A stretch of DNA of 64,000 nt from an uncultured bacterium (GCA_965368975.1 CBDUPA010000002.1:320001-384000); one strand, 5' to 3'; positions 11,024-25,999 are shown, counted from the first letter of the stretch. Notes: generated by a model not told the origin, from the letters alone. Made by a program: numbers and translations.

Positions 11024-12349
11024 GTGATCTTGATGCCAGATCCATCTCTATTGACTACGAGTGATAGTCGAAGTTTCATCGATGCCCTACCAGACTGGTT
11101 TGGTTGGGCCCTCTTGGGGATCTTTGCTACCTGTGTCTTCATTTTCGGCTACGCATACCGAAGCGTTCGGACCGGGCAAGAAGGGTCCTCAGAGCCACCA
11201 AGAGTAGTCGTCATCCCTCGCGATCATTACGACTTATCCAGGCTCGCACTTTCTGCCTTATTGTTAGCAGTCAGCGCTGTGGCAACCATCGTTCTTCCTT
11301 TTACCTTCTACGACTCCCAGACTAAACGGGATCAGGAAGCTCTCCGAATCTCTAAGCTAGAACTCGCCCTTCCACTTCTTGCCGAGCAAGACCCCAGCGC
11401 AGTGAGGACTGGCCTACTGACTCTTGATCGTTTGGGAGATACGCAAAGGGCCCTCGAATTTGCAAGAAGCTCTAACAACCGTGGGGTAATATCCGGCCTT
11501 GTTCAAATCATCTCCGACCAGAATCGACAGCCATCTCTCAGGGACTTCAAGTGCGACCGAGCCTTAAACCCAAGCACCGAAGCCCGAATACTGGAGACAA
11601 TTAGAAGAGGTATGCAGACCAGGTGGGCCTCTGCAATTGCAGAAATCACCTACCGAAATTACCAGAATATCCCCGCACTGAACAATACTACCTCAACAGG
11701 CCTTTTGTTAAGCCAGGAGCTTACGAACAAGGCGTCTTCCACAACTTCGAACCAACCTATGCTTCTTTTTGATCCTGAGTTAAGAACCCGAAAGGACTTG
11801 TGCCCCGAGGAAGAGAAACAGGAAGAGGAGGAAGAGAAACAGGAAGAGAACGAGGAAGAGAACGAGGAAGAGAACGAGGAAGAGAACGAGGAAGAGAACG
11901 AGGAAGAGAGCAAGCCTAGTCTGGAGTTCATCACTCTTTCTGGCATCTCAGGCAGCGTTGAGTTCTGCTGTGAATGTCAAGCACCAGTCCATTTTGGCAA
12001 CTCTGAAGTGGACGAGCAACAATGGAAAATTGTACGACCAGGGGTAAACCTAGGAGATCATGTGATCGGAATCTCCAGAAACAGAAGTGCGCCCGTGCTC
12101 CGCGAGGACGGAGACGCAGAGTGCTTGCTCACCGCGATTCCTGGCCGAATAATCAGAGTAAATGACCAAATCGTGGAAGTGAAGTTCCTCAAGCAGACCT
12201 TCCCGCCGGATTTCATATTCTCAGAGTATGGATACTTCCTAGGGTATCGGACAATAGAACGGGCTCCGCCTGGAAGCGAGTTAGTAAGACTTACAGCTAT
12301 CTACACATCCGTTACACGACAGGATGTGACTATCAAAGAAGGATGGTGA
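11024..12349 (+). CDS. Hypothetical membrane protein with acidic EENE repeat and possible degenerate trypsin-like C-terminal domain
   Basis: 441-codon ORF in lower-GC DNA; two N-terminal hydrophobic helices; start uncertain (11024/11033). Confidence 0.65.
   Translation: MILMPDPSLLTTSDSRSFIDALPDWFGWALLGIFATCVFIFGYAYRSVRTGQEGSSEPPRVVVIPRDHYDLSRLALSALLLAVSAVATIVLPFTFYDSQTKRDQEALRISKLELALPLLAEQDPSAVRTGLLTLDRLGDTQRALEFARSSNNRGVISGLVQIISDQNRQPSLRDFKCDRALNPSTEARILETIRRGMQTRWASAIAEITYRNYQNIPALNNTTSTGLLLSQELTNKASSTTSNQPMLLFDPELRTRKDLCPEEEKQEEEEEKQEENEEENEEENEEENEEENEEESKPSLEFITLSGISGSVEFCCECQAPVHFGNSEVDEQQWKIVRPGVNLGDHVIGISRNRSAPVLREDGDAECLLTAIPGRIIRVNDQIVEVKFLKQTFPPDFIFSEYGYFLGYRTIERAPPGSELVRLTAIYTSVTRQDVTIKEGW
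11807..11909 (+). repeat. In-frame 12-bp tandem repeat (GAGGAAGAGAAC) encoding poly-EENE
   Basis: About five near-perfect copies plus degenerate EEEKQ copies. Confidence 0.92.
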
Positions 12350-12352
12350 AGG

Positions 12353-12631
12353 ATGAGAGGCCTAATAACCGAAAACAGGATAATCCCAACATGCGTCAAT
12401 GCCACAGATGTGCTAGTTTTTGCTGGGGTCCTGATTTTCATCGTCCTAGGGCTGTTTCCCAGCCTAATCGAAGAGGATGTACCCGAGACTCAGCCACCAG
12501 TAGACTTCATGCTTCCGAGCTGCCTTGCCCAACAGGGCTATGCGCTTCGACATCTTGGACAAGAGCCGCAGATTGGCGGAACTATCAATCCAGCTACCTT
12601 GAGGTGCTCAGGTGCTCCAACCAACTGCTAG
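12353..12631 (+). CDS. Small membrane-anchored/exported peptide with C-terminal GTINPATLRCSGAPTNC motif (copy 1)
   Basis: Hydrophobic stretch VLVFAGVLIFIVLGLF; C-terminal 17 aa are 14/17 identical to the peptide at 17753-18001. Confidence 0.75.
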   Translation: MRGLITENRIIPTCVNATDVLVFAGVLIFIVLGLFPSLIEEDVPETQPPVDFMLPSCLAQQGYALRHLGQEPQIGGTINPATLRCSGAPTNC

Positions 12632-13886
12632 GATAAGAAGGCTAATCCCAAGGAGAAGCATCATTGTTCAAGTGACTCTCGTTTTCGGCCTTGGTGCCTG
12701 CGGCTGGGAAGGAGAGCGAGTAGAGTTGACCCCTCCACCTAGATGGGTTTCCAGCTTACACATAAATTCGACCGAGAGTTCTTTCCTGATTATTGTAGAT
12801 CCTACAGCTGAAGTAGAGGACGGCCTACTCTTCTATGACCACAGAGGCTCAAGTCTCCGCATGCAGCACCCGGCCAATGGAATGATGGTGGTTGCTATGC
12901 AAGCTTTCGGTTCTGGCGATATCTCAAGAGTTCCCGGCAGCGGGTACATCGCACAAACTGACGGACCCAAGTTCCTGCATTTTGATGACCAACTCAAGCT
13001 CAGGAGCGAAGTCTTCGATAAGACAACGCTCCTCATCAATGGAGCAGCTCAATGCAACTCAAGCATTGAGACGGAATCTAATTTCAAATTTGCAACAATC
13101 GGCATGCCTATAGCATGGCATTTTTCTGCTGAACGGTTGTTCCTCTTGGGAGATATCCAGGTGTTTGAAGGGCCTCCAGAAGACTCCGAGGGCTCATGGA
13201 TGTTTGGCCTACTAGAGATTGACAGATCTGCATCAAGGCCGTCATTCAATATCATCGGTAGCCTGCATTCGGTCGACGAATCCACCAGAGATCAGCATTT
13301 GGATCAATCCACCAGAGATCGGCATTTGTATGCTCGCTTTCCGGTCCTCACAGTTGTCAAGAATTATCTTTATTTCCTGCATTTAGAGGAGAACCCGACA
13401 ATCCTCAGATACAGAATCGGTAGCTGCGCAGAACCCAGGGTCATCCTAGCGCTCAGTGAAAGGCCATTCCAACTAACAGCTCCGAATGTACCTCGGAGGA
13501 TTTCTGGGCCAGATGTTGGCAGCGTTTTCAAAGCTCAGGAGATGTCGGATATGCCGATAGGCCTATTCAACTGGGAAGACCGGTTGGTCTTGGCATCACG
13601 GCGCAGAGCAGTCCCGGGTGCAACTACTGATTGGGAGTTACATCTGCTTAAGGGAGCACGCTCAAGCTCTCTTGAGCTGGATCGTTCACTTAAACTCACC
13701 CAAGTGAGTGCCTCCCACCTGATGATTGCTCCTGGAGACCCTGAGTGGGTATTTCTGGAGCAAGGCACTGTCGAGAGTCTGGGATTTCAGAATCAGGAAT
13801 CCATCTTAATACTTCCGAATTCAAGAATACAGCACTGCTTCCACAAGAGCGGAGACGGAGTCACTGCTGAGTGCCCGCCGGTCTAA
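12612..13886 (+). CDS. Exported beta-rich (putative beta-propeller) lipoprotein, partner of peptide copy 1
   Basis: Lipobox-like LVFGLGAC; collinear motifs shared with 18105-19235; start uncertain. Confidence 0.65.
   Translation: MLQPTARIRRLIPRRSIIVQVTLVFGLGACGWEGERVELTPPPRWVSSLHINSTESSFLIIVDPTAEVEDGLLFYDHRGSSLRMQHPANGMMVVAMQAFGSGDISRVPGSGYIAQTDGPKFLHFDDQLKLRSEVFDKTTLLINGAAQCNSSIETESNFKFATIGMPIAWHFSAERLFLLGDIQVFEGPPEDSEGSWMFGLLEIDRSASRPSFNIIGSLHSVDESTRDQHLDQSTRDRHLYARFPVLTVVKNYLYFLHLEENPTILRYRIGSCAEPRVILALSERPFQLTAPNVPRRISGPDVGSVFKAQEMSDMPIGLFNWEDRLVLASRRRAVPGATTDWELHLLKGARSSSLELDRSLKLTQVSASHLMIAPGDPEWVFLEQGTVESLGFQNQESILILPNSRIQHCFHKSGDGVTAECPPV
13279..13328 (+). repeat. 27-bp-period in-frame tandem duplication (STRDQHL / STRDRHL)
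   Basis: aatccaccagagatcagcatttg gatc aatccaccagagatcggcatttg. Confidence 0.88.
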
Positions 13887-13894
13887 GAGGCAGC

Positions 13895-15304
13895 CTAGGT
13901 CCACCCGATCCACACCGCTACCACCAACGCGACGCACGCCACGATCCACGCCTTGACCAGGAACGGCAGCACAAAGCGCACCCAGCGGTCATAAGGAATA
14001 CGGGCGATCGACAAGATACCGACGAGCACCGCGTTGGTCGGCACCAGGATGTTGGTGAGACCGTCGCCGAACTGGTAGGCCAGCACCGACACCTGACGCG
14101 ACACGCCGACGAGATCCCCGATCGGTGCCATCAGCGGCACGGTCACGTACGCTTGACCGCTGCCGGAGGGGATGAAGAAGTTACACAGGCTTTGGAACAC
14201 CAGCATACCGACGGCGGCAAGCTCCGGACCCAGAGTCTCCAAGGTCGACGCAATGCTGTGGATGATCGTATCGACGACTTGACCCTCGTCCAGCACCAAC
14301 TCGATCGTGCGCGCAAAACCGATCAGGAGCGCGGTCGTCGTAAGTTCGGCGGCGCCGTGGCAGAAGTTCTTGGCGGTGCCATCGAAGCCGAGACGTCCGG
14401 CGAGGCCCAGGACGATCGAGAGGCCGAGGAAGAGAGCTCCCATCTCGACCAGGTACCAGCCCTGGCTGACCAGACCCCAGATCAACAAACCGACGGCGGC
14501 AACTGTGACGAACAGGGACAGCTTGTGCCGCCCGGTCAGGCTCGGGTGCTCGTTGGCGTCGACGGTGGCGGGTGGCTCGATGCCGGCGACCAGGGACTTC
14601 GACGGATCCGCCTTGACCTTGCTGGCATAGCTCCACACATGGTGAATGCCGATGGCCAGGAAGACGACGACCCAAGCGAGGCGGTATGGCATGCCGGAGC
14701 CTTGAGGCAGGCCAGCAATGTCCTGCGCGATGAAGATGGTGAAGGGGTTGATGATCGCCAGGCCGTAGCCAATGCCGTAGCCGATGCACATCACGCCAAC
14801 GGCGGTCACAGCGTCGAAGCCCAGGGCAACGCACAGCGCAACGAGCATGAGGACGAAGGGTATGTACTCCTCCGCCATGCCAATCGTGCTAGAGCCAACG
14901 GCGAAGAGCAGGATGCCGCCGGTGATCAACCAGAAGGGTCGATGACCGAGCCGGCGCAGCAGAGCGCCGATGGCGGCATCGGCAGCGCCGGTGGCGCGGA
15001 AGACACCGAACGCTCCGCCGACGATGAAGACGAAGAAGATGATGTTCTGCGCCGCCGCAAAGCCGGCCGGGATGGCGGTGAGCGGCGTCAGGGGGCTGAG
15101 CGTCGTGGGCTCTGCGGCGCGTTCGTAACTGCCCGCGACGACACGGTCGTGACCGTCGACCTCCTGGCGCTCGTACTGCCCCTGCGGCAGCAGGTAGGTG
15201 AGTACCAGCGCCAGCACGATCATGCCAAAGAGCAGCACTAGCGTATGGGGCACGCGGAAGCCTGAACTGGAAGGGGCGGAACCGCTCTTGGTAGTCTCAG
15301 CCAT
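13895..15304 (-). CDS. yfcC: YfcC family (IT superfamily) transporter
   Basis: [40 protein letters not shown] motifs; many TM helices. Confidence 0.88.
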
Positions 15305-15475
15305 AGTCTTCTCCTAATATCTTCCTCGGTGTGGCGTACATCAAGCCGATGCGCGCCGAGTTAACCACATCTGACCCCGAGGCGACGAGAGCAGTCTTGA
15401 ACCGCTGTAAGACTCACGCTCCTCAACAGAACACTGGTGCTGGGTCGCATCGTCGTCTGACGCGCCATAGACACC

Positions 15476-17499
15476 ATTGGTAGATCCTTACACGTTTCTA
15501 AGCGGTCGCCCGCTCGGGTAGATGTCAAGACCCCCTTTCAAACCGTGCTTGCGGATTTCCCGCACACGGCTTACGGATGGCCTCTCGGGTCGCGGCATTA
15601 CGCAGCCTCCGGGTAGCGGATCGTGCCCATGAGCTTGTAGAGCCCGAGGTTCCAGAAGGACTCACTCGTCCAGCGGCGCGCCTCGCCCAGCTTCAGGTGC
15701 CGCCCTTTGCGCGTAAGGCGCAAGCGGCGCAGTCGTCGCCAGACGTAGGTGTCGACTTGAACGAATTGCTTGGCGGCGTTTCCCGTGCGGAAGTACTGAC
15801 TCCACCCTCGAAGCACGGGGTTGAGACTCGCGATGACATCGCGCAGATCCGCGTGGCATCGTGACCTCGGAGTCAGCTCTTTGATGCGCTGCCGTATACG
15901 CTGCATCGAGCGCTGCGACGGCCAACGGTGGAGAAAGTAGAGCCGACGCCCCGTCTTCTCCCACAATCGACCGCTCAAACGCTTGTGCAGGTGGCAGCCG
16001 AGGAAGTCGAACCCCTCCTTGCCGTCGTAGAGATTCACTCGCCTCGTCTTCTCCGGGTGTAGCTCCAGACCAAGACGTTCCAGGATCACGCGGATCCGCG
16101 CCTCGGCCTGATCGCACTGGGACTTCGTGCGACAGATCACGACGAAGTCGTCTGCGTACCGCACCAGCGTCCCCAAGGGAGCGCTGTGGCGCGTCCACAG
16201 CGTGTCCAGCACATGCAGGTAGATGTTCGACAGCAAGGGTGAAATCACACCACCCTGCGGTGTACCGACCCGCGTCGGCGACACCTTGCCGTCCTCCATC
16301 ACACCAGCTTCGAGCCACTGCCGCAGCAGCTTCAGCATCCGCCGATCCGAGACGCGCCGTGCCACCAGAAGCAACAGCTTCCGGTGGTCGATGCTCCCGA
16401 AGTAGTCCCGGATGTCGGCATCGAGCACGTGATGATGCCCCTTGGCGCCGAGCTTCCTCAGCGTCTCCAGCGCATCCGTCGCACTCCGCTTTGGCCGGAA
16501 ACCATACGAGACGGGCAAGAAATCCGCCTCGAAGATCGCCTCCAACACCAGCTTTGCCGCCATCTGGACCACACGGTCTCGTACCGTCGGGATACCCAGC
16601 GGCCGCTTCCTTCCATCTGCCTTCGGGATGTACCGGCGCAGCACCACCTCAGGCCGATACTTCTTGGCTCGCAGCGAGGAACCGAGCTCTTCCAGGAAGC
16701 GCTCGGTACCGTACTGCTCCACGTCGCCTAGCGTCGCGGCATCGACGCCCGCGGCTCCGCGGTTGGCTCGTACCCGCTTCCACGCCTCCCACAGGATGTC
16801 ATCCCTGTGGATGTGGTTGTACAGGGCGTGGAAACGCCTACCCGGCGACCGCTTGGCCGCCGCCCACAGTCGACGTTGGAGGTGGCGCACTTTCACGCTC
16901 GGCCTACGGCCGACGGGGTCGATAGGTCCGGTCTTGCCGGCCATTCCCTTGCACGTGCCTCCACCCTCGACATGACCAAACCAGGGACCCTTCCCTAAGG
17001 CGGCGTTCTTCTGCACCGCCTTCACCGGTACTACGATCCCCTCGGACTCCCGCTGCGCACGACCCGACTTCGCCTTCGGCCTATACGGGCACGCTGGCCG
17101 CGACAACGGCTGCACAGACGGGTCTCTCGTGTTCCGCGCGTCTCCTTGCACACGTGCTGCGCCCCATACCCCGCCGGCATCCGACGCAGGCTCCGGATCT
17201 GACCCCACGCCGGACATGGCCTTCGCCGTGACATGAGCGGCTCGGCTACCGAATTGTAAATCTGTCGAGGCTGCAGGCTTCACTTCATGTTGCGGCCCGT
17301 GTGCTTGCTCCCCGTCCAGCGGAAATTCTCCGCCTCCGGGCTTGTGACGCCCCGCTCGGGCAAAGGGGTCTCCCCCAAATACCTGGGGCCGGCTACTCGG
17401 CGCTCCGGCGCTTACCGAGGTGGGACTTTCACCCACTGGACACGCGCAGCGCACAGATCTCTCCCCGGAAACCAGAGTTCGATCTGTTTCACGACGCAC
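15476..17499 (-). mobile_element. Group II intron, apparently complete (~2.0 kb)
   Basis: 5' GTGCG at 17499; domain V AAGCCGTGTGCGGGAAATCCGCAAGCACGGTTT (AGC triad, GAAA loop) just after the RT stop; domain VI ending ...CTACCAAT at 15476; RT ORF inside. Confidence 0.88.
15598..16944 (-). CDS. ltrA: Group II intron reverse transcriptase/maturase without C-terminal endonuclease
   Basis: NRGAAGVD, RPLGIPTVRDR, SYGFRP, GTPQGGVISPLLSNIYL, RYADDFV, FDFLG, LRGWSQYF (X domain); ends YPEAA*; internal ATG 16944, frame is open up to 17502. Confidence 0.93.
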   Translation of the reverse strand: MAGKTGPIDPVGRRPSVKVRHLQRRLWAAAKRSPGRRFHALYNHIHRDDILWEAWKRVRANRGAAGVDAATLGDVEQYGTERFLEELGSSLRAKKYRPEVVLRRYIPKADGRKRPLGIPTVRDRVVQMAAKLVLEAIFEADFLPVSYGFRPKRSATDALETLRKLGAKGHHHVLDADIRDYFGSIDHRKLLLLVARRVSDRRMLKLLRQWLEAGVMEDGKVSPTRVGTPQGGVISPLLSNIYLHVLDTLWTRHSAPLGTLVRYADDFVVICRTKSQCDQAEARIRVILERLGLELHPEKTRRVNLYDGKEGFDFLGCHLHKRLSGRLWEKTGRRLYFLHRWPSQRSMQRIRQRIKELTPRSRCHADLRDVIASLNPVLRGWSQYFRTGNAAKQFVQVDTYVWRRLRRLRLTRKGRHLKLGEARRWTSESFWNLGLYKLMGTIRYPEAA

Positions 17500-17600
17500 C
17501 ATGGCCTCATTCTAGGTCCGACAACGCGTACTAGTATTGAGCCAGAAGATTCGCTAGCAAGAACATTCCCAGCGAGCCTCAGACTGATTGGGCCAATAGG

Positions 17601-17630
17601 TTGACAAGCAAAGTTGGCCGGAGCTACACT
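17601..17630 (+). promoter_or_regulatory. Candidate sigma70 promoter for peptide copy 2 module
   Basis: TTGACA-N18-TACACT. Confidence 0.5.
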
Positions 17631-17752
17631 CTCATTCTTCTTTTCTCCTCCTTATTTCGGTCTAACTTCAATCTCAGAATCTGTGTTCTCCATGCAACAA
17701 AGACCGGAGAATCGCGTTTCTGTTATAGTATGAGTACCCGAAGGAGCCATTG

Positions 17753-18001
17753 ATGAAATTGCACAAGAGACTTTGGCGGGTTTCGGCTATTTGTGTTGCT
17801 CTGCTCGCATTTTCGGCAGGCGCAGTAGGCCAAGGACACTGTCCATCGCAAACAGCCTCTTCTGCTGCCAGGGACTTTGGCAGTACAAGCTGCACGGACA
17901 AGAGCAATCACCGGGGGGACTTGCACGAATCTCCTGACATCCTATCCGGAACGATCAATCCCATCTCCCTGACGTGCAGTGGCGCACCAACAAACTGCTG
18001 A
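17753..18001 (+). CDS. Small secreted Cys peptide with C-terminal GTINPISLTCSGAPTNC motif (copy 2)
   Basis: AAGGAG RBS; Sec signal MKLHKRLWRVSAICVALLAFSAGAVG; four Cys in predicted mature part; shared C-terminal motif. Confidence 0.82.
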   Translation: MKLHKRLWRVSAICVALLAFSAGAVGQGHCPSQTASSAARDFGSTSCTDKSNHRGDLHESPDILSGTINPISLTCSGAPTNC

Positions 18002-18104
18002 GTCCTTCCCCCCGACTGAGAACCAGGTAAAACGATCAATGAACATGCCAGAATCTGCTCTCTTGGCAGCCTACTCCTCTTGGGCTGACCGGTACTACAC
18101 TTTC

Positions 18105-19235
18105 ATGCGGTGGCTACTTGCCTTAGCGGTTCTGTTGTCCGCATTGGGCAACCCAGCATTCGCTCAGACAAGCGAGAGCTGCACGCAGTTTCGGTTGAGT
18201 GCTGCACCGGATTGGACAGCGTCCATCGCTTGGTCTCCAAACCATCGCGCTTTGATCTTCGCGGACCCGACGTCGGCGACGCTTCACGCATTCCGACCTT
18301 CGTATCTCTCCAAGAGCATGATTCTGGATCCCGGCCTGACACAGACACTCAACGAGAACCAGCCAGCTAGACGCCCGTCGACGTTGCATCGAATCAGTTC
18401 TGGATTCCTACTGGAGGATGCGGCAGATGGCTCTATCGTGCGCCTCTCTTCAAGCTGGGAAAGTGTGGATCGAGTTCGCGTTGCAGGGATGTACCATCGT
18501 ACCCAAGGCACGTTGGAAGCTCTCCACAACTGGAGGCCGTCACCCGACGGCTCGGAGATCTTCGCCTATGGCGACGTCAAGGCCCAGGACTCTTCAAAGT
18601 GGACAGCTGCGTTGGTACGTATCGACCTGAGCGAGGAGACCTTCGAGGTGATCCAAGAACAGGAGTTCTCTTCGCCACTTCGCTCTCTTTACCTAGCCGG
18701 CCTACCCTACATCGAAGCAAGGGGAACACCTGCAACCTTCGTTGGGCAGAACACCAATGGTGAGATCAGGTTGGTACGACATGCTGCTGGGACGAGGACT
18801 GTCCAGGAACCACCTGGGCAGCTCCGAAGGTTCCTAAACTTCCGGGATTTTGTGCACTACAACGGTCTGGCAAACTTCGTCGACTTCTTTGATTCCCTCG
18901 GAAGTCGCGAGTACCTAGCAGGCTTTCTCGAGGTAGATGGTGTAAGCCACCTGCTACTGAGAGCCCGCACCGACGCTGGTCGATATGTTTGGGCTGTCGC
19001 AGACGAACAAGATGGCGACAGACAGCAGATTAGCTTCGTGCAGCTCCCCGTCCAGTCACCACAGGTACTTATCACCTCGACAGAGGATTCAGTCATCCTA
19101 GTCGAGGCCACCGTCACAGATGTTGGTCGGAAAGAATTTGGCTCGGTATGGGAGATTCCAAACAATCTCCTGAATTCAGCTGTGGCCCTGGCGCAAGAGC
19201 ACCCTGGGAGGGTCCGGCTAGTCTGCCAGAACTGA
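18105..19235 (+). CDS. Secreted beta-rich (putative beta-propeller) protein, partner of peptide copy 2
   Basis: Signal MRWLLALAVLLSALGNPAFA|Q; IAWSPN and WRPSPDG propeller-like turns; paralogous motifs with 12612-13886; start could be further upstream. Confidence 0.7.
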   Translation: MRWLLALAVLLSALGNPAFAQTSESCTQFRLSAAPDWTASIAWSPNHRALIFADPTSATLHAFRPSYLSKSMILDPGLTQTLNENQPARRPSTLHRISSGFLLEDAADGSIVRLSSSWESVDRVRVAGMYHRTQGTLEALHNWRPSPDGSEIFAYGDVKAQDSSKWTAALVRIDLSEETFEVIQEQEFSSPLRSLYLAGLPYIEARGTPATFVGQNTNGEIRLVRHAAGTRTVQEPPGQLRRFLNFRDFVHYNGLANFVDFFDSLGSREYLAGFLEVDGVSHLLLRARTDAGRYVWAVADEQDGDRQQISFVQLPVQSPQVLITSTEDSVILVEATVTDVGRKEFGSVWEIPNNLLNSAVALAQEHPGRVRLVCQN

Positions 19236-19464
19236 TCGACCCGAGAACGAGGCACAAAACGACCCTTAGCTCCTTGGGAGCTTGAGGGTCGTTTCCCGTT
19301 TTGGGGTCCCAACCGTCTCGGCTCACTTCAAGAACTTCGGCCACAACCCCTGGTGTAGGATGCCCGCAATGAGAGGCATCGATCCCGGCCCTCTCGAGCG
19401 GCAACCGAACTCTCGACCTCTCCGCTCCAACGCCCACCGACAACCAGACGCAAGGGAGGCACGC

Positions 19465-22400
19465 ATGACGCGTAGCACGTGGACCCTCGGACTCGTTCTC
19501 ATCCTGCTCGCCGCCCTCACGGCGGTACCGGCCGTCGCCTCGAAGACGCAACCGGCACCCGGCACCTCCGCCGGCCTCGACGCCGATCTGCTCGCCGGCA
19601 TGACGGCACGCGCCATTGGCCCGGCGGCGATGAGCGGTCGTATCGGCTCGATCGACGCGCTGGCGAATGACCCGAACGTGATCTACGTGGGCGCCGCCAC
19701 CGGCGGCTTGTGGCGCACGCGCAACGGCGGCGTCACCTGGGAGCCGATCTTCGACGATCAGCCGGTAGCAGCGATCGGAGCAGTGACGCTGGAGCAGGCG
19801 AATCCGGACGTGGTGTGGGTGGGCACCGGCGAGGGCAACACGCGCAACAGCGTGTCCGTGGGCAACGGCGTCTACAAGTCGCTCGACGGCGGCGACACCT
19901 GGACGCACCAAGGCCTCGACCAGACCGAGCGCATCCACCGCATCCGCCTGCATCCCGACAACGCGGACATCGCCTATGTGTGCGCCCTCGGCCAGCTGTG
20001 GGGCGAGAACGAGCAACGCGGCGTGTTCAAGACCACCAACGGCGGCACGACGTGGGCCAAGATCCTGTACGTCGACGAGCGCACCGGCTGCTCCGACCTG
20101 GAAGTGGACCCAGTGAACGGTGACAAGGTGATCGTGGGCATGTGGCAGCACCGCCGCTGGCCGTGGTCCTTCAAGTCAGGTGGCCCGGGCTCCGGGCTCT
20201 ACGTAACCCATGACGGCGGCGCGACCTGGACGCAGCGCACGCAGGACGACGGCCTACCGGAAGGGCACCTCGGCCGTATCGGCCTGGCGATTTCTCACTC
20301 GCAGCCGAACGTGGTCTACGCCATCGTCGAGGCCGAGAAGTCGGCTCTGCTGCGTTCCGACGACGGCGGCAAGACGTTCCGCGCCGTCAACACGAACAAC
20401 AACGTCATCTCGCGGCCCTTCTACTACGCCGACATCCGCGTCGACCCGAAGAACCCGAACCGTGTGTACAACCTGTGGTCGCTGCTTTCGGCCTCGGACG
20501 ATGGCGGCCGCACCTTCGACATCATCGGCTCCTGGAACACGATCCATCCCGACCACCACGAGCTGTGGATCCATCCGCACAACCCGCGCTTGCTGATCAA
20601 CGGCAACGACGGCGGCGTCACGATCTCGCAGGACCACGGCCGCACCTGGCGCTTCATCGGCAACCTGCCCTTGGCGCAGTTCTACCACGTGCGAGCTGAC
20701 AACCAGATCCCTTACAACGTCTACGGCGGCCTGCAGGACAACGGCTCCTGGGTCGGCCCCAACGAGGTGTGGGAGAACGGCGGCATCCGCAACCACCACT
20801 GGCAGGAAGTCAATTTCGGCGATGGCTTCGACACCGTGCCGGACCCGCAGATCCCCAACCAGGGCTACGCCATGGCGCAGACAGGCTACCTCGTGCGCTG
20901 GAACCTGGACACCGGCGAACAAAAAGAAATCCGACCAGCACCGCCGGCGGAGGACGAGAAGCTGCTGCGCTTCAATTGGAATGCCGGCATCGAATTCGAC
21001 CCGCACGACCCGACCGGCGCCACCGTCTACTACGGCAGCCAGTACATCCACAAGTCGACTGACCGCGGAGACACCTGGACGATCATCAGCCCGGACCTGA
21101 CCACCAACAACCCAGAGTGGCAGAAGCAGGCGGAGAGCGGCGGCCTGACGCTGGACGTGACCGGTGCCGAGAACTTCACCTCGATTCTGGCGATCGACCC
21201 CAGCCCGGTGCAGGAAGGCGTGATCTGGGCAGCCACCGACGACGGCCGCCTGCACGTGACGCAGGACGGCGGCGAGACCTGGACCAGCGTCGAGGGCAAC
21301 CTGCCGGGCGTACCGGCCAACACCTGGATCCCGCACGTCAACGCGTCGCCGCACGCCGCCGGCACCGCTTTCGTGGTGCTCGACGACCATCGGCGCTCCA
21401 ACTGGACCCCCTACGTGCTGCGCACCGACGACTTTGGCCAGACCTGGACGTCGCTGGTGAGCGACAACCTGTGGGGCTATGCCCTGGTGATCGAGCAGGA
21501 CCCGGTGGACCCGAACCTGCTGTTCCTGGGCACGGAGTTCGGCCTCTGGATCTCGACCGACGCCGGTAGCGGCTGGCTGCGCTTCGAGCACGGCGTGCCG
21601 ACGGTCAGCGTGATGGACCTGGCGATCCAGGAGACCGAGCACGACCTGGTGATCGGCACCCACGGTCGTGGCTTGTTCGTGCTGGACGACATCCGCCCCC
21701 TGCGCGGACTGGCCGCCGAGCACCAGGCGGGAGAGCTCCGCTTGTTCGAGATCCCCACCGCCTACCAGCACGAAGTCGCCCAGACTGGCTCCTCGCGCTT
21801 CCCGGGCAACATCGAGTTCCGCGGTGAGAACCCCCGCTACGGCGCGCTGCTCACCTTCTCCCTTCACGGCGACGACCTACCGCACCCGGACGAGGCGAAG
21901 GAACGCGAGCGCAAGGCCGCCGAACGCGCTGCCAAGCTGACCGAAGTCGAAGCCGGCGAGAGCACCGAACAAGAACCGGCACGGCGTCGCGGACGGCGCG
22001 CTGGCGCAGGTGGTCCAGGCCCAGGCGGCCCCCCGTGGGCGCGCGGCGACGACGGACCGCAGATCGACATCGAGGTCGCGGACGCCAGTGGTGAGGTCAT
22101 CCGCAGGTTCAAGGCACCCGCCCGCCAGGGTCTCAACCGGACCACCTGGAACCTGGCACGCGACGGCTTCCGTCGGCCAGCGGGGGACTTGCCCTTCTGG
22201 ATCACGGGAGCACCCACGGGACCGGCCGTACCGCCGGGCACCTACACGGTGACCGTGAAGTTCCGCGACCAGGAATCGAGCCAGACGGTCGAGGTGAAAG
22301 CCGATCCGCGCATCGATCCGCCCCAATCGCAAGCGACCTGGGAAGCCCACTACCAGGGCCTGCTCGACGTCGGGGCCCTACAGGAGGTCCTCACCGACGC

Positions 22401-22965
22401 TGTAGAGCGTATCGACGCGACCAAGACGAGCGTCGACAGCCTGCTGGCCCGCGCCGGTACCCTCAACAAGGAAGCTCTCGAGGCAGAAGAGGAGGAAGGC
22501 GGCGAGATAGAAGACGCTGCTTCCGAGACAGCTGACTCAGACACGGGCGACACCGAAGGCGAAGCGGGCAACACCAGCGGCACCGAGGTCGCGGCGACCG
22601 AAGAAGACGAGGCAGCCCGCGGTCCATACGGGGAACTGCTCAAGGCCGGCCGTGAGCTGAACGAGCAGCTCGACGGACTGCGCGAACGCCTGGTCGGTCC
22701 CGAAGAGAGCAAGGGCATCCAGGAGGACACCGACGCGCAAAGCTACCTGGGCGGTGTCCGCGGCTCGATGAGTTCCTCGTGGGATCCGCCGACGGCGGCA
22801 CAGCTGGCCTACCTGGAGCGCGTGCGCCAGCAACTGGCGGCAATCCTGGAAGACCTCAACCGCGTCCACGCCGAGGACGTCGCCGCCTTCCGGACCCAGG
22901 TGCGCGAGTCGCAACTCGACTGGCTGCCCGAGCAAGAACCTCTGACGCTGCCCGAGTCGGAGTAG
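19465..22965 (+). CDS. Secreted VPS10/sortilin-like BNR (Asp-box) repeat protein, glycosyl hydrolase-like
   Basis: Signal peptide; RAIGPAAMSGRI; many S/TxDGGxTW Asp-boxes; YGGLQDNGSW; LFLGTEFGL. Confidence 0.88.
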   Translation: MTRSTWTLGLVLILLAALTAVPAVASKTQPAPGTSAGLDADLLAGMTARAIGPAAMSGRIGSIDALANDPNVIYVGAATGGLWRTRNGGVTWEPIFDDQPVAAIGAVTLEQANPDVVWVGTGEGNTRNSVSVGNGVYKSLDGGDTWTHQGLDQTERIHRIRLHPDNADIAYVCALGQLWGENEQRGVFKTTNGGTTWAKILYVDERTGCSDLEVDPVNGDKVIVGMWQHRRWPWSFKSGGPGSGLYVTHDGGATWTQRTQDDGLPEGHLGRIGLAISHSQPNVVYAIVEAEKSALLRSDDGGKTFRAVNTNNNVISRPFYYADIRVDPKNPNRVYNLWSLLSASDDGGRTFDIIGSWNTIHPDHHELWIHPHNPRLLINGNDGGVTISQDHGRTWRFIGNLPLAQFYHVRADNQIPYNVYGGLQDNGSWVGPNEVWENGGIRNHHWQEVNFGDGFDTVPDPQIPNQGYAMAQTGYLVRWNLDTGEQKEIRPAPPAEDEKLLRFNWNAGIEFDPHDPTGATVYYGSQYIHKSTDRGDTWTIISPDLTTNNPEWQKQAESGGLTLDVTGAENFTSILAIDPSPVQEGVIWAATDDGRLHVTQDGGETWTSVEGNLPGVPANTWIPHVNASPHAAGTAFVVLDDHRRSNWTPYVLRTDDFGQTWTSLVSDNLWGYALVIEQDPVDPNLLFLGTEFGLWISTDAGSGWLRFEHGVPTVSVMDLAIQETEHDLVIGTHGRGLFVLDDIRPLRGLAAEHQAGELRLFEIPTAYQHEVAQTGSSRFPGNIEFRGENPRYGALLTFSLHGDDLPHPDEAKERERKAAERAAKLTEVEAGESTEQEPARRRGRRAGAGGPGPGGPPWARGDDGPQIDIEVADASGEVIRRFKAPARQGLNRTTWNLARDGFRRPAGDLPFWITGAPTGPAVPPGTYTVTVKFRDQESSQTVEVKADPRIDPPQSQATWEAHYQGLLDVGALQEVLTDAVERIDATKTSVDSLLARAGTLNKEALEAEEEEGGEIEDAASETADSDTGDTEGEAGNTSGTEVAATEEDEAARGPYGELLKAGRELNEQLDGLRERLVGPEESKGIQEDTDAQSYLGGVRGSMSSSWDPPTAAQLAYLERVRQQLAAILEDLNRVHAEDVAAFRTQVRESQLDWLPEQEPLTLPESE

Positions 22966-23749: not shown

Positions 23750-25999
23750 ATGGATCCACCCTCTCCCTCCGTCTTCATCAGCTATAGTCACGACACCGAC
23801 GAGCACAAACAGCGTGTCCTGGCGCTGGCGGATCGGCTGCGCCAGGACGGGATCGACGCGATTCTCGATCGCTACGCGGGGTCCCCGGAGGAAGGCTGGC
23901 CGAGATGGATGTTCGGACAGATCAAGGCTGCCGACTTCGTGCTCGTCGTCTGTACCGAGACGTATTACCAGCGCTTCTGGGGCCTGGCGCTGGACGGGCT
24001 CGGTGTGAACTGGGAAGGCGCCATTCTCACTCACTCCCTCTACGCCGCCCGTAGCTGGAATCCGCGCTTCGTGCCTGTCCTCTTCGACACCGAAGACAAG
24101 TCACACATCCCCGAGATCTTCAGCGTCTCCTACTTCTCAGTCTCCACAGAAGCAGGGTATCTCGACCTCTACCGCCACCTGACAGGTCAACCCGAGACAC
24201 CGCCCCCGCCCATTGGCCCACCACGAGAACTCCCGCCGTCCGACCGCCCTGACCCCCTCTTCGAGAGCGACGAAACCCGCGGCTTCTCCAAAGAGCTACA
24301 GTCCGCGCGACAGGAAAGGAAAGCCCTGTCACTCCGAGGCGAGGACATCACTACCGTCCAGGAACGCATCCTCGACCTGAGACGCAAGCTGCGCGCCGGA
24401 CCACAGCTGCAAGCCGGGGACCTGTTGCTCGACCGCTTCGAGCTGGTGGAGGAGATCGGTCACGGCGGCTTTGCGGTGGTGTGGAAAGCCTGGGACGAGG
24501 AGGACGAGGTAGTTGTCGCGGTCAAGGTGCTGCACGGCCAGTACTGCAAAGACCGCACTCGCCGCCAGCGCTTCTTCAACGGCGCCAGGCGCATGGCGAA
24601 GTTGCACCATCCGCACGTCGTCAAAGTGCTGCACCAGAAGCAGGTCGACGATGGTCATTACTTTTTCGTGATGGAGTACCTGCCCGGTGGTGACTTCCGG
24701 CAAGCCGTCTGCAGCGGTGCTCTCTCGCAAGATGAACGCCTACAGGTCGTGCGTCAGATCGGAGATGCACTGGAATACGCCCATGAAAGACAGGTAATCC
24801 ACCGCGACGTCAAACCCCACAACATCCTGCTGGACACAGATGGCACCCCCAAGCTGACCGATTTCGACCTGGTGCGCGCGCTCGAGTCAACGCAGGGGAC
24901 CAAGACCGGCTTCTTGGGTACACCGCTGTACGCGGCACCGGAGATGATGGAACGCCCACAGGACGCAGGGCCCGCGGCGGATGTCTATGGATTGGGGATG
25001 ACGGCGCTGTTTGCCCTGGCGGAGCGGGAACTGCCGCTGTCCCTGATGCGGGGAGTCGATGCCTTCCTGGCAGACTTGCAAGCACCAGAGCCCATCAAGA
25101 AGGCAGTCCATCGGGCGGTAGCATGGAACGTCCAAGAGCGGTTCAGCTCAGTAGCGGAGTTCTGCAGCGCGTTGGAGCTGCCCCGCAAGCCGACCCGGGT
25201 GGAGCCGCAAGCTGCACGATCAACGCGACCGCGACTAGCCTGCGGGAGTACGGGAGAGATTCTGCCACCGACCCAGGTCCGCGAGCGCCAATACGGAGAA
25301 TTGGGCATCGAGCTGGTGCACGTACCGGCCGGTGTGTATCCGATGGGTGCCAAGGGCATCAAGTACGCCGAACCAGTTCACCAAGTACAACTCAGCGAGT
25401 TCTGGATCGGCAAGTACCCCGTGACCCGCGAGCAGTACGCCGCGTTTCTGAAGGCCCATCCAGATCATGCGAAGCCACTCTTGTGGACCGAGGAGGGCTT
25501 TCAGCAGCCACGTCAACCCGTGGTCGGCGTGAACTGGCACGATGCCAAAGCCTTCTGTGGGTGGATCGGCGCACAGCTCCCCACCGAGGCGCAGTGGGAA
25601 GCCGCGGCGCGCGGCCCAGAGGGTCGGCCGTATCCATGGGGTCCTGCTGAGCCGACGAAGCAACTCGCCTGCTTCGGGCAAGACTGGGAGACGGGAAGTC
25701 CGGAAGCGGTCGATGCGCTACCCGAGGGTCAGGGGCCGTTTGGCACCTGGGCTCAGGCGGGCCACGTCTGGGAATGGTGCGAGGACGGCTGGGATGAGAA
25801 TGCCTACGCCGAGCGCGCGAAACGCATTCTGGAAGATCCCGCCCATGCCGCCGACAAATCTGCGTATCGTGTGCTGCGCGGCGGGTCTTGGGCCCACCAG
25901 GCCAGGAACCTGCGGGCCGCGTCCCGGAACAGGCTCAGGGCCGACTATCGGTACCGGAGCATCGGGTTCCGTGTCTGTGTGTCGTCCTCCGAGCCTTGA
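23750..25999 (+). CDS. SEFIR/TIR-like domain + Hanks-type Ser/Thr kinase + FGE-sulfatase (CLec-fold) protein; putative DGR target
   Basis: VFISYSHD...GWPRWM...ADFVLVVCTETY; IGHGGFAVVWKA, VAVK, HRDVKPHN, DFDL, APE; LPTEAQWEAAARG...VWEW...RVLRGGSW...GFRVC. Confidence 0.88.
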   Translation: MDPPSPSVFISYSHDTDEHKQRVLALADRLRQDGIDAILDRYAGSPEEGWPRWMFGQIKAADFVLVVCTETYYQRFWGLALDGLGVNWEGAILTHSLYAARSWNPRFVPVLFDTEDKSHIPEIFSVSYFSVSTEAGYLDLYRHLTGQPETPPPPIGPPRELPPSDRPDPLFESDETRGFSKELQSARQERKALSLRGEDITTVQERILDLRRKLRAGPQLQAGDLLLDRFELVEEIGHGGFAVVWKAWDEEDEVVVAVKVLHGQYCKDRTRRQRFFNGARRMAKLHHPHVVKVLHQKQVDDGHYFFVMEYLPGGDFRQAVCSGALSQDERLQVVRQIGDALEYAHERQVIHRDVKPHNILLDTDGTPKLTDFDLVRALESTQGTKTGFLGTPLYAAPEMMERPQDAGPAADVYGLGMTALFALAERELPLSLMRGVDAFLADLQAPEPIKKAVHRAVAWNVQERFSSVAEFCSALELPRKPTRVEPQAARSTRPRLACGSTGEILPPTQVRERQYGELGIELVHVPAGVYPMGAKGIKYAEPVHQVQLSEFWIGKYPVTREQYAAFLKAHPDHAKPLLWTEEGFQQPRQPVVGVNWHDAKAFCGWIGAQLPTEAQWEAAARGPEGRPYPWGPAEPTKQLACFGQDWETGSPEAVDALPEGQGPFGTWAQAGHVWEWCEDGWDENAYAERAKRILEDPAHAADKSAYRVLRGGSWAHQARNLRAASRNRLRADYRYRSIGFRVCVSSSEP
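25868..25999 (+). repeat. DGR variable-region-like repeat VR1 (pairs with 26663-26794)
   Basis: 118/132 nt identical to VR2; all mismatches at codon positions 1-2. Confidence 0.85.

Follow-up and report, generated by a model that had tools for sequence, protein, structure and literature searches.

A conserved two-gene cassette that appears to encode, as separate chains, the cysteine-loop module and the β-propeller of one exported protein

INTRODUCTION

Exported β-propellers that are accompanied by a small, separately encoded exported chain are known from MxaF/MxaI and from the heavy and light chains of methylamine dehydrogenase, while LDL-receptor-type proteins carry a six-bladed YWTD propeller flanked by EGF modules that pack against the propeller. 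Here we describe two cassettes that recall both arrangements, located between positions 12353 and 19235 of a 64,000-nucleotide (nt) stretch of DNA from an uncultured bacterium (GCA_965368975.1 CBDUPA010000002.1:320001–384000; hereafter the window, with positions counted from its first letter). Each cassette consists of a gene for a small exported peptide with a C-terminal cysteine loop (pepA or pepB), followed by a gene for an exported protein that is modelled as a six-bladed β-propeller (propeller A or propeller B).

The likeness to MxaFI/MauBA, an exported propeller with a small separate exported chain, is an analogy only. MxaFI/MauBA are 7- or 8-bladed enzymes that depend on pyrroloquinoline quinone (PQQ) or tryptophan tryptophylquinone (TTQ), have another gene order and show no sequence relationship to the cassettes, whereas the A/B family is six-bladed; furthermore, the cassettes contain no Pfam match to PQQ or methylamine dehydrogenase families and have no small-subunit or cofactor-biogenesis neighbours. 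The YWTD-EGF proteins share with the cassettes a small disulfide-stabilised module encoded beside a six-bladed propeller, but they are a eukaryotic mosaic in which EGF comprises three disulfides in about 40 residues, whereas the module described here is a single loop of 8–9 residues, and no homology of either the loop module or the propeller to YWTD-EGF proteins was detected. MRJP1 (5yyl, solved as an oligomer that we take to contain the small peptide apisimin) is a structural neighbour (Z 15.3), but it is an insect protein with no sequence relationship, and the likeness is again an analogy only.

The fold class of the A/B family is that of the NHL/TolB-like/SGL propellers (the clan of PF01436, PF08450, PF15869, DUF5128 and DUF4221). 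However, when A, B and 10 relatives were scanned at E ≤ 0.1, none of them hit a Pfam or NCBIfam model, those of the NHL/TolB-like/SGL families included, and no NHL/TolB-like/SGL propeller family is known to have a detachable N-terminal cysteine-loop module. TolB-Pal combines a TolB N-terminal domain and a PD40 propeller with the OmpA-like lipoprotein Pal in the tol-pal operon. Membership of this system was rejected, as neither A, B nor the peptides give a Pfam match to TolB_N, PD40 or OmpA, and the neighbours are an orphan open reading frame (ORF), DcuC, a group II intron and a Sortilin/BNR protein.

Bufferins, which are modified in the cytoplasm by MNIO/DUF692-type enzymes, offer a parallel on the peptide side. 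As described in PMC11626156, they are small cysteine-containing peptides with Sec signal peptides encoded beside partner genes. The cassettes differ in having no MNIO/DUF692-type enzyme and an exported propeller as partner; general Pfam and NCBIfam scans of the peptides gave no significant match, none of these searches being aimed at bufferin models. A known class of peptide that is synthesised by ribosomes and modified after translation (RiPP) was likewise rejected, because the Pfam and NCBIfam scans of the cassettes recognised no modifying enzyme, RRE, protease or exporter. Pfam also found no RiPP-type family among 10 neighbour proteins, which makes membership of a known class less likely and leaves room for a new one. 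Class II bacteriocins comprise a released cationic or amphipathic peptide (with a YGNGV box in class IIa) and a small immunity protein. A Sec-dependent class II bacteriocin was rejected on the lack of a family match, on a partner that is an exported propeller of 380–420 amino acids (aa) and on the fusions found in relatives. To judge from these comparisons, a detachable cysteine-loop module on an exported six-bladed propeller had not been recognised before.

RESULTS

Two small exported peptides share a conserved tail

The two cassettes comprise the following features.

pepA, 12353–12631, plus strand: 92 aa, with a hydrophobic anchor at the N-terminus, a loop module at the C-terminus and a variable stretch between them
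Loop module of pepA, 12578–12628, plus strand: GTINPATLRCSGAPTNC, in which a short β-hairpin is followed by a Cx6C loop that is presumably closed by a disulfide
Propeller A, 12612–13886, plus strand: 424 aa, exported, with the lipobox LGAC
pepB, 17753–18001, plus strand: 82 aa from ATG, or 83 aa from TTG 17750, with a classical signal peptide and a mature part that has four cysteines and ends in a loop module
Loop module of pepB, 17948–17998, plus strand: GTINPISLTCSGAPTNC
Propeller B, 17979–19235, plus strand: member of the predicted six-bladed propeller family

An initial annotation of the window had drawn attention to two small ORFs with a common tail, each directly followed by an exported protein of about 380–420 aa, and the ORF list and the raw sequence bear this out. 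Specifically, pepA and pepB both end in GTINPxxLxCSGAPTNC and a stop codon, and the partner genes lie directly 3′ of them. Codon-by-codon comparison of the tails shows 14 of 17 residues to be identical, seven with the same codon and seven with a different codon (serine, for example, is TCA in one and AGT in the other), while the stops are TAG in pepA and TGA in pepB and the nucleotide identity is 37/51. A 54-nt tail stretch (78%) is the sole blastn match between locus A and locus B, and the homology of pepA and pepB extends over the last 43 residues (BLASTP E 1e-9). As the annotation had argued, the codon differences support selection on the tail at the protein level; they rule out that the tail was copied in the recent past by DNA duplication or gene conversion. 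In all six reading frames of the 7.1-Mb genome, CSGAPTNC is encoded at the tails of pepA and pepB only.

Both peptides carry a Shine-Dalgarno (SD)-like sequence and an N-terminal hydrophobic export segment, in agreement with the export signal or anchor and the terminal Cx6C initially ascribed to them. The ATG of pepA is preceded by the SD-like GAAGGA..GGTGAAGG, and the SD of pepB is GAAGGAG. The N-terminus of pepB looks like a cleavable Sec signal peptide, while that of pepA is probably an uncleaved signal anchor, which would leave pepA membrane-anchored. A third peptide, pepC, encoded on another contig (C16), is a small signal-peptide ORF with a C-terminal cysteine loop and a strong SD.

The peptides are nearly invisible to sequence search. 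The exact sequence of pepA occurs in the public protein collection as an unnamed singleton, and pepB is absent from it with either start. A word-indexed protein search with pepB gave no match (one candidate, none scored) because pepB is too short for database-scale E-values. A six-frame search of 60 relatives with the whole of pepB returned noise only, apart from pepA, and an ESM Atlas search gave no usable match; single-sequence searches with pepB fail because only the two loop cysteines are invariant among the 26 peptide ORFs compared below.

The partner proteins belong to one unnamed propeller family

Propellers A and B match the family profile hidden Markov model (HMM) with E-values of 1.4e-106 and 1.9e-109, respectively, both sequences being inside the profile, which is based on a 12-sequence family alignment (A1). 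Compared directly by BLASTP, A and B show no significant similarity (E 0.92). Both match the same ORFs in relatives (for example in genomes G048, G030, G054, G021, G020 and G011), and A aligns to a profile of B and six relatives, built without A, with an hhalign probability of 99.2% (E 1.3e-19, 323 columns). By profile alignment, A and B are homologous, and the collinear motifs from which the relationship had originally been suspected fall on conserved columns of A1.

The A1 profile retrieves 1649 cluster representatives at E ≤ 1e-3, 964 at E ≤ 1e-10 and 657 at E ≤ 1e-30 among 1.84 billion. All 20 representatives looked up are unnamed or labelled 'hypothetical protein', and the only organism labels among those looked up are Thermoanaerobaculia (2) and Acidobacteriota (1). 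A signal peptide is N-terminal in the family members examined; propeller A has the lipobox instead. The start of propeller A overlaps pepA by 20 nt. The frame of propeller B is open from GTG 17979, but translation more probably begins at ATG 18039 or at ATG 18105; directly 3′ of ATG 18105 comes the signal-peptide-like MRWLLALAVLLSALGNPAFA.

Asp, Arg, His, Glu and Gln residues, together with several Trp, are invariant or nearly so across the family. Propeller A retains the most conserved motif, the C-terminal H..PG...W...E.G, whereas propeller B diverges from it (H to Q, PG to ST, W to V). A cysteine follows just after the signal peptide in 110 of 149 members and another lies near the C-terminus in 104 of 149; these two may form a closing disulfide.

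The family is modelled as a six-bladed β-propeller

The AlphaFold2 (AF2) model of B has a mean predicted local distance difference test (pLDDT) score of 82.3 and a predicted template modelling (pTM) score of 0.83, and contains about six four-stranded sheets, with a helical insert and a C-terminal helix. VIA-align matches the model to six-bladed propellers only, at Z 13–16, and Foldseek does likewise, with no match standing out. The structural neighbours are NHL domains, yellow/MRJP1, TolB-like proteins, DUF4221, strictosidine synthase and PAL. In particular, the NHL domains 8suc, 1q7f and 7nyq, the TolB-like 2ojh and the DUF4221 structure 3s9j reach Z 15–16 by VIA-align, and the NHL domains superimpose with a root-mean-square deviation of 3.6–3.8 Å over 245–253 residues. 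Against the PDB, the family profile gives weak NHL matches (6d69, E 2e-5; TRIM71, TRIM2 and TRIM3, 4e-4 to 6e-3) that span only about 50–85 residues. The nearest language-model clusters are annotated as 'hypothetical' or as NHL/DUF5128/SGL propellers. On these models, which also include a fused relative, P0138 (six-bladed in AF2, pLDDT 85.6), the A/B family consists of six-bladed NHL/TolB-like β-propellers, and the propeller-like partner proposed at the outset holds. Since the structural matches are generic and none stands out, no enzymatic activity is deduced from the fold.

The peptide–propeller pair recurs in related genomes

The genome holds exactly three family propeller genes by HMM search. 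The third, on contig C16 (HMM E 1.7e-51), is likewise preceded by a small cysteine-loop ORF, pepC. In a sample of the phylum, 4 of 201 genomes match, including this one, and all four are from the same order; within that order, 92 of 251 genomes match the propeller profile (E ≤ 1e-15), often with several copies, a tally that, alone among the results, takes in the unpublished genome G338. Within the order, some 50 partial matches, most of which span profile positions ~210–365 (genus g11), lie outside the analysis, and L035, L049 (contig end) and L055 (from G338) are left out of the counts.

We examined the slot before each propeller gene, defined as same-strand ORFs whose ends fall within the range from 450 nt upstream to 150 nt downstream of the propeller-match start, for peptides that pass a strict test (a hydrophobic 12-mer and, within the final 22 aa, a Cx6C that has no inner cysteine). 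The test is passed upstream of the propeller in 21 of the first 29 loci, against 0 of 1442 background ORF segments from these loci; five of the eight failures have a Cx5C or Cx7C loop or a longer tail. Because the strict criterion was devised on these 29 loci, 53 further loci were fetched as a held-out test. Of these, 21 pass the strict test and 27 a loose version, against backgrounds of 0/601 and 1/601. Two held-out loci (L076 and L101) have less than 300 nt upstream and were scored 'none', while the strict pass in L081 is probably a spurious frame, as that locus looks fused. Throughout the host genome, 56 of 97,221 segments pass the strict test; they include the three cassette peptides, which are those that precede its only three family genes.

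The 26 peptide ORFs examined are 69–95 aa long and begin with basic-then-hydrophobic N-termini, and most have an AGGAGG/GGAGG-type SD just 5′ of the chosen ATG. The two loop cysteines are the sole invariant residues across the 26. Ten of the peptides were looked up by exact sequence, and six of them are annotated as genes in public data. The peptide stop lies 0–111 nt from the propeller-match start in 19 of 21 loci, the outliers being L051 (30-nt overlap) and L058 (257 nt), and no terminator-like site was seen between the peptide and propeller genes.

A full-text literature search, mostly at abstract level, returned no description of a peptide–propeller pair, and the passages of PMC8195603 on propellers and nSTAND1 contain nothing relevant to the pair. 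In these genome comparisons, the cassette is a conserved two-gene system of no described family, real and widespread, which accords with the initial claim of an undescribed system and with the expectation that the peptide motif would co-occur with the partner family elsewhere.

Relatives carry the module and the propeller in one chain

Among 22 family representatives with long N-terminal extensions, 17 combine a signal peptide, the loop module, a linker and the propeller in one chain. In these fused members, the module comes right after the signal peptide, and a linker of ~40–60 residues leads to the propeller. The module consensus is GTxD/N-x5-6-CxGxPx2-3C, and examples such as GTLDLGGISCSGAPSDC, GTINASTLSCEGAPRADC and GTIDATTLSCKGAPRVDC are close to the GTINPxxLxCSGAPTNC of pepA and pepB. 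A strict regular expression for the module matches 11 of 150 representatives, against 2 of 4997 long ORFs of the host genome. Within the sampled genomes, it identifies fused forms at L080 and L091, the latter with CDGAPTNC, and the loop identifies further fused forms at L078, L081, L083 and L106. In the AF2 model of P0138, the module forms a β-hairpin (mean pLDDT 76 and 90 in its 10-residue blocks), while the flanking signal peptide and linker have low pLDDT (49–60).

We built an HMM from the 17 fused modules alone and ran it on 119,434 six-frame genome segments. The peptides of the three cassettes occupy the top three ranks: pepA is first (E 1.6e-4), pepC second (E 0.057) and pepB third (E 0.12). 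This ranking indicates that the small ORFs code for the N-terminal module of the propeller family in detached form, so that, as far as sequence comparison can establish it, the cassette is the split form of one exported protein. The fusions, together with the probable membrane anchor of pepA, point the same way. The two marks of the family are both present, as A and B match the propeller profile and the cysteine-loop module lies on the upstream small exported ORF. Chance ORFs were rejected as an explanation by the locus tests, the genome-wide screen, the held-out loci and the ranking by the fused-module HMM.

Two of the fused loci, L078 (genome G030, contig C6) and L083 (genome G441, contig C255), have ORFs of ~870 aa with an extra N-terminal region of ~400 aa before the loop module and propeller. 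Judged from the ORFs, this layout is a third architecture of the propeller family.

The loop peptide may dock on its propeller

Complex prediction with mature pepB and mature B, a comparison that the initial annotation had suggested, gave a score of 0.59 (runs 0.59, 0.02 and 0.85), while the best of three controls scored 0.00. The runs share at least 15% of contacts, and the pLDDT of the partner is at least 32. Of 80 solved complexes, 58 reached the mark used for such predictions, as did 2 of 110 mismatched pairs, and among those that reached it with a score of at most 0.60 are only 7 of the 80 solved complexes and both passing mismatches. The prediction lends weak support to docking of pepB on B. 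Taken together, the fusions, the translational coupling and the complex prediction make physical association the most economical reading, and we consider it fairly probable, while far from certain, that the small loop-bearing subunit docks on its propeller.

In the assembly that we propose, a cassette would supply two co-translated exported chains that are one protein in other family members. The module would consist of a β-hairpin followed by a Gly/Pro-rich loop closed by a disulfide. In the split form, a small Sec-exported protein (pepA, pepB or pepC) ends in this module, and the propeller has gained its own signal peptide or lipobox. The loop would be oxidised after export, and the small chain would then dock through the module onto its propeller, yielding a stable extracytoplasmic heterodimer. 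Both parts would be membrane-tethered in cassette A (an anchored peptide and a lipoprotein) and soluble in cassette B. Disulfide formation, the docking of the module and the stoichiometry of the complex are what we infer from the evidence above.

Several observations weigh against this assembly or against the tests on which it relies. The test criteria were devised after the first loci had been seen, and related genomes are not independent samples. By simple tests, about 40% of the 53 held-out loci have neither a split nor a fused module, so that the module may be dispensable or variants may have been missed by the tests. One of the three pepB–B runs scored 0.02, the fold of the partner is uncertain, and no interface was returned. 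If the module served only to fit its own propeller, it would also be odd that the modules of pepA and pepB are near-identical beside propellers that have diverged beyond detection by BLAST, and that B has lost the most conserved motif; the module could contact a conserved third party instead. Finally, the invariant polar residues (Asp, Arg, His, Glu and Gln) could be an active site that acts on the peptide.

The proposed assembly bears on a family of at least 1649 clusters for which we found no name, no domain model and no paper, and whose small partner genes are too short and divergent for sequence search. Recognising the two halves provides an annotation rule for calling small loop ORFs, and the natural split/fused pair lends itself to structural work on the docking of a minimal disulfide loop. 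Knowing the two halves also gives a defined starting point for the function of an accessory protein common in soil and sediment bacteria.

The cassettes differ in composition from their surroundings

The GC content is 0.50 in the A operon (including the adjoining orf441) and 0.54–0.56 in the B cassette, against 0.64–0.67 in flanking genes. At third codon positions, GC is 0.51–0.61 in the cassettes (11024–13886 and 17440–19235) and 0.80–0.86 in neighbouring genes. The propeller gene lies 3–16 GC points below its surroundings in all 10 loci examined over an extended region (L064–L073), and the propeller gene of cassette C is also lower than its surroundings. Together with the conserved residues, the cysteines and the neighbours, these values are in keeping with an accessory protein that is horizontally mobile and faces the surface or the environment.

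The low-GC island of cassette A also holds a further gene, whose stop is 4 nt 5′ of the pepA start.

orf441, 11024–12349, plus strand: orphan 441-aa membrane protein with a transmembrane segment and an (EEN)n-like, E/N-rich, low-complexity acidic repeat

For orf441, searches gave neither a homologue (E ≤ 1e-3) nor a significant hit in Pfam or NCBIfam, and it is not beside the cassettes in the 10 extended loci of relatives; whether it is part of the cassette system is uncertain. The sole neighbour that recurs among the 10 extended loci in an all-against-all BLAST is a STAND/LRR protein, which is found in four.

STAND NTPase (nSTAND1/AAA_16) with leucine-rich repeats (LRR), ~500–1040 aa, beside the cassette in four loci, all of family f7: L065, 2901–6011; L069, 2077–5193; L070, 8134–9678; L073, 7299–10280

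Giant exported CarboxypepD_reg/SdrD_B-type repeat proteins lie directly 3′ of the propeller gene at L025 (3–3317, contig C16) and L071 (7604–10357), and a non-ribosomal peptide synthetase module (condensation, adenylation and thiolation domains) is found upstream of cassette C. Since the distribution is patchy and multi-copy, the GC is consistently low and STAND-NTPase/LRR or giant adhesin-like proteins are occasional neighbours, we guess at an accessory, environment- or conflict-facing role and not a housekeeping one.

Alternative roles for the two proteins

The fusions and the pepA anchor also bear on the cognate pair put forward in the initial annotation. A conserved, exported two-gene system has been retained from that proposal, while the idea of two independent proteins, whether peptide and receptor, toxin and immunity protein or peptide and modifier, has not.

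The peptide might instead be a RiPP-like precursor with the loop as its core, which the propeller modifies, cyclises or trims after export. Such maturation outside the cytoplasm would suit peptides with a variable middle and a conserved terminal core, and it could draw on the Arg, Gln, His, Glu and Asp residues that are invariant or nearly so in the propeller family. Some structural neighbours are six-bladed propellers that process peptides or small molecules, namely PAL (3fw0, Z 13.7), strictosidine synthase (Z 14.4) and a Diels-Alderase (Z 14.4). A fused relative would then be an enzyme whose substrate is its own N-terminus, and enzyme-fused precursors are known among borosin-type peptides. 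However, Pfam and NCBIfam recognise no known modifying-enzyme family in A or B, the 10 extended loci have no conserved protease, transporter or maturation gene adjoining the cassette, and the structural matches are generic, with none standing out. Moreover, B is without several of the conserved residues even though pepB keeps the module, and pepA seems to be membrane-anchored. We regard this course of maturation, and peptide modification with it, as possible but unlikely.

In a second alternative, the loop would fill the binding face of the propeller as a tethered ligand until an external ligand, such as a molecule of an invader or a neighbouring cell, displaces it, and in some lineages this sensor would be coupled to cytoplasmic STAND-NTPase/LRR proteins. 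The STAND NTPase/LRR protein adjoining the cassette in 4 of 10 extended loci speaks for such coupling, as do the patchy multi-copy distribution (92 of 251 genomes of the order), a propeller gene of lower GC than its surroundings in 10/10 extended loci and in 3/3 cassettes of this genome, and a loop that is conserved while the propellers diverge fast. The four STAND-linked loci, however, are all of family f7 and so could represent one inherited arrangement. Furthermore, no STAND/LRR gene lies beside the three cassettes of this genome in the stretches examined, and the propeller has neither a signalling domain nor a transmembrane link. A displaceable loop of this kind seems improbable to us. We give equally little credence to the broader picture of an extracytoplasmic recognition system of Acidobacteriota-like bacteria that is horizontally exchanged, diversified, split or fused and, in some lineages, wired to NLR-like STAND/LRR proteins; if the pair did prove to be a recognition or conflict device, bacterial NLR-like systems would gain a new component outside the cytoplasm.

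A diffusible signal and its receptor are unlikely, as the fusions and the pepA anchor argue against them. The same two features make it very improbable that the peptide is a secreted toxin or bacteriocin and the propeller the cognate exported protein that neutralises it or confers immunity. Such a pair would be suited by a disulfide-loop peptide that is small, Sec-exported and tightly coupled to the gene after it, by the occurrence in one genome of several paralogous pairs that have diverged, and by a foreign-looking gene composition, but module–propeller fusion in many relatives is not expected of it, a probably anchored pepA would not be released, near-identical tails stand beside propellers diverged beyond recognition, and no bacteriocin or immunity family is matched in Pfam or NCBIfam.

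Other features of the window and the genome

Upstream of pepB there is one candidate promoter.

Promoter-like TTGACA-18-TACACT, 17601–17630, plus strand: ~120 nt 5′ of pepB

We treat it as a weak lead, since the three promoter-like sites found in the region are not above shuffles (mean 3.2). Downstream of cassette B, 47 nt after propeller B, a gene at 19282–22965 (plus strand; GC 0.67, native) encodes a 1227-aa exported Sortilin/Vps10-BNR repeat protein and may be co-transcribed with propeller B.

A group II intron with a native-like GC of 0.64 lies between the cassettes at 15512–17502 (minus strand). Rfam matches cover domain V/VI (15512–15574) and D1–D4 (17285–17438), and the ORF for the reverse transcriptase (RT)/maturase spans 15598–17502. 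The RT domain begins at residue 292, so the true RT/maturase start is probably near 16884.

Further downstream, at 23750–25999 (plus strand), a 749-aa protein combines a SEFIR/TIR domain, a Ser/Thr protein kinase and an FGE-sulfatase-like domain, an architecture typical of conflict and signalling systems of multicellular-type bacteria. Elsewhere in the genome, the Cx6C screen brought up four paralogous ORFs of ~500–585 aa on contigs C7 (13257–15014, 23881–25371 and 25567–27255) and C17 (48530–50272), which end in a near-identical, very cysteine-rich C-terminal domain, ..CVGNCGGQASGGCWCDSSCSFWGDCCSDKVA.CG.

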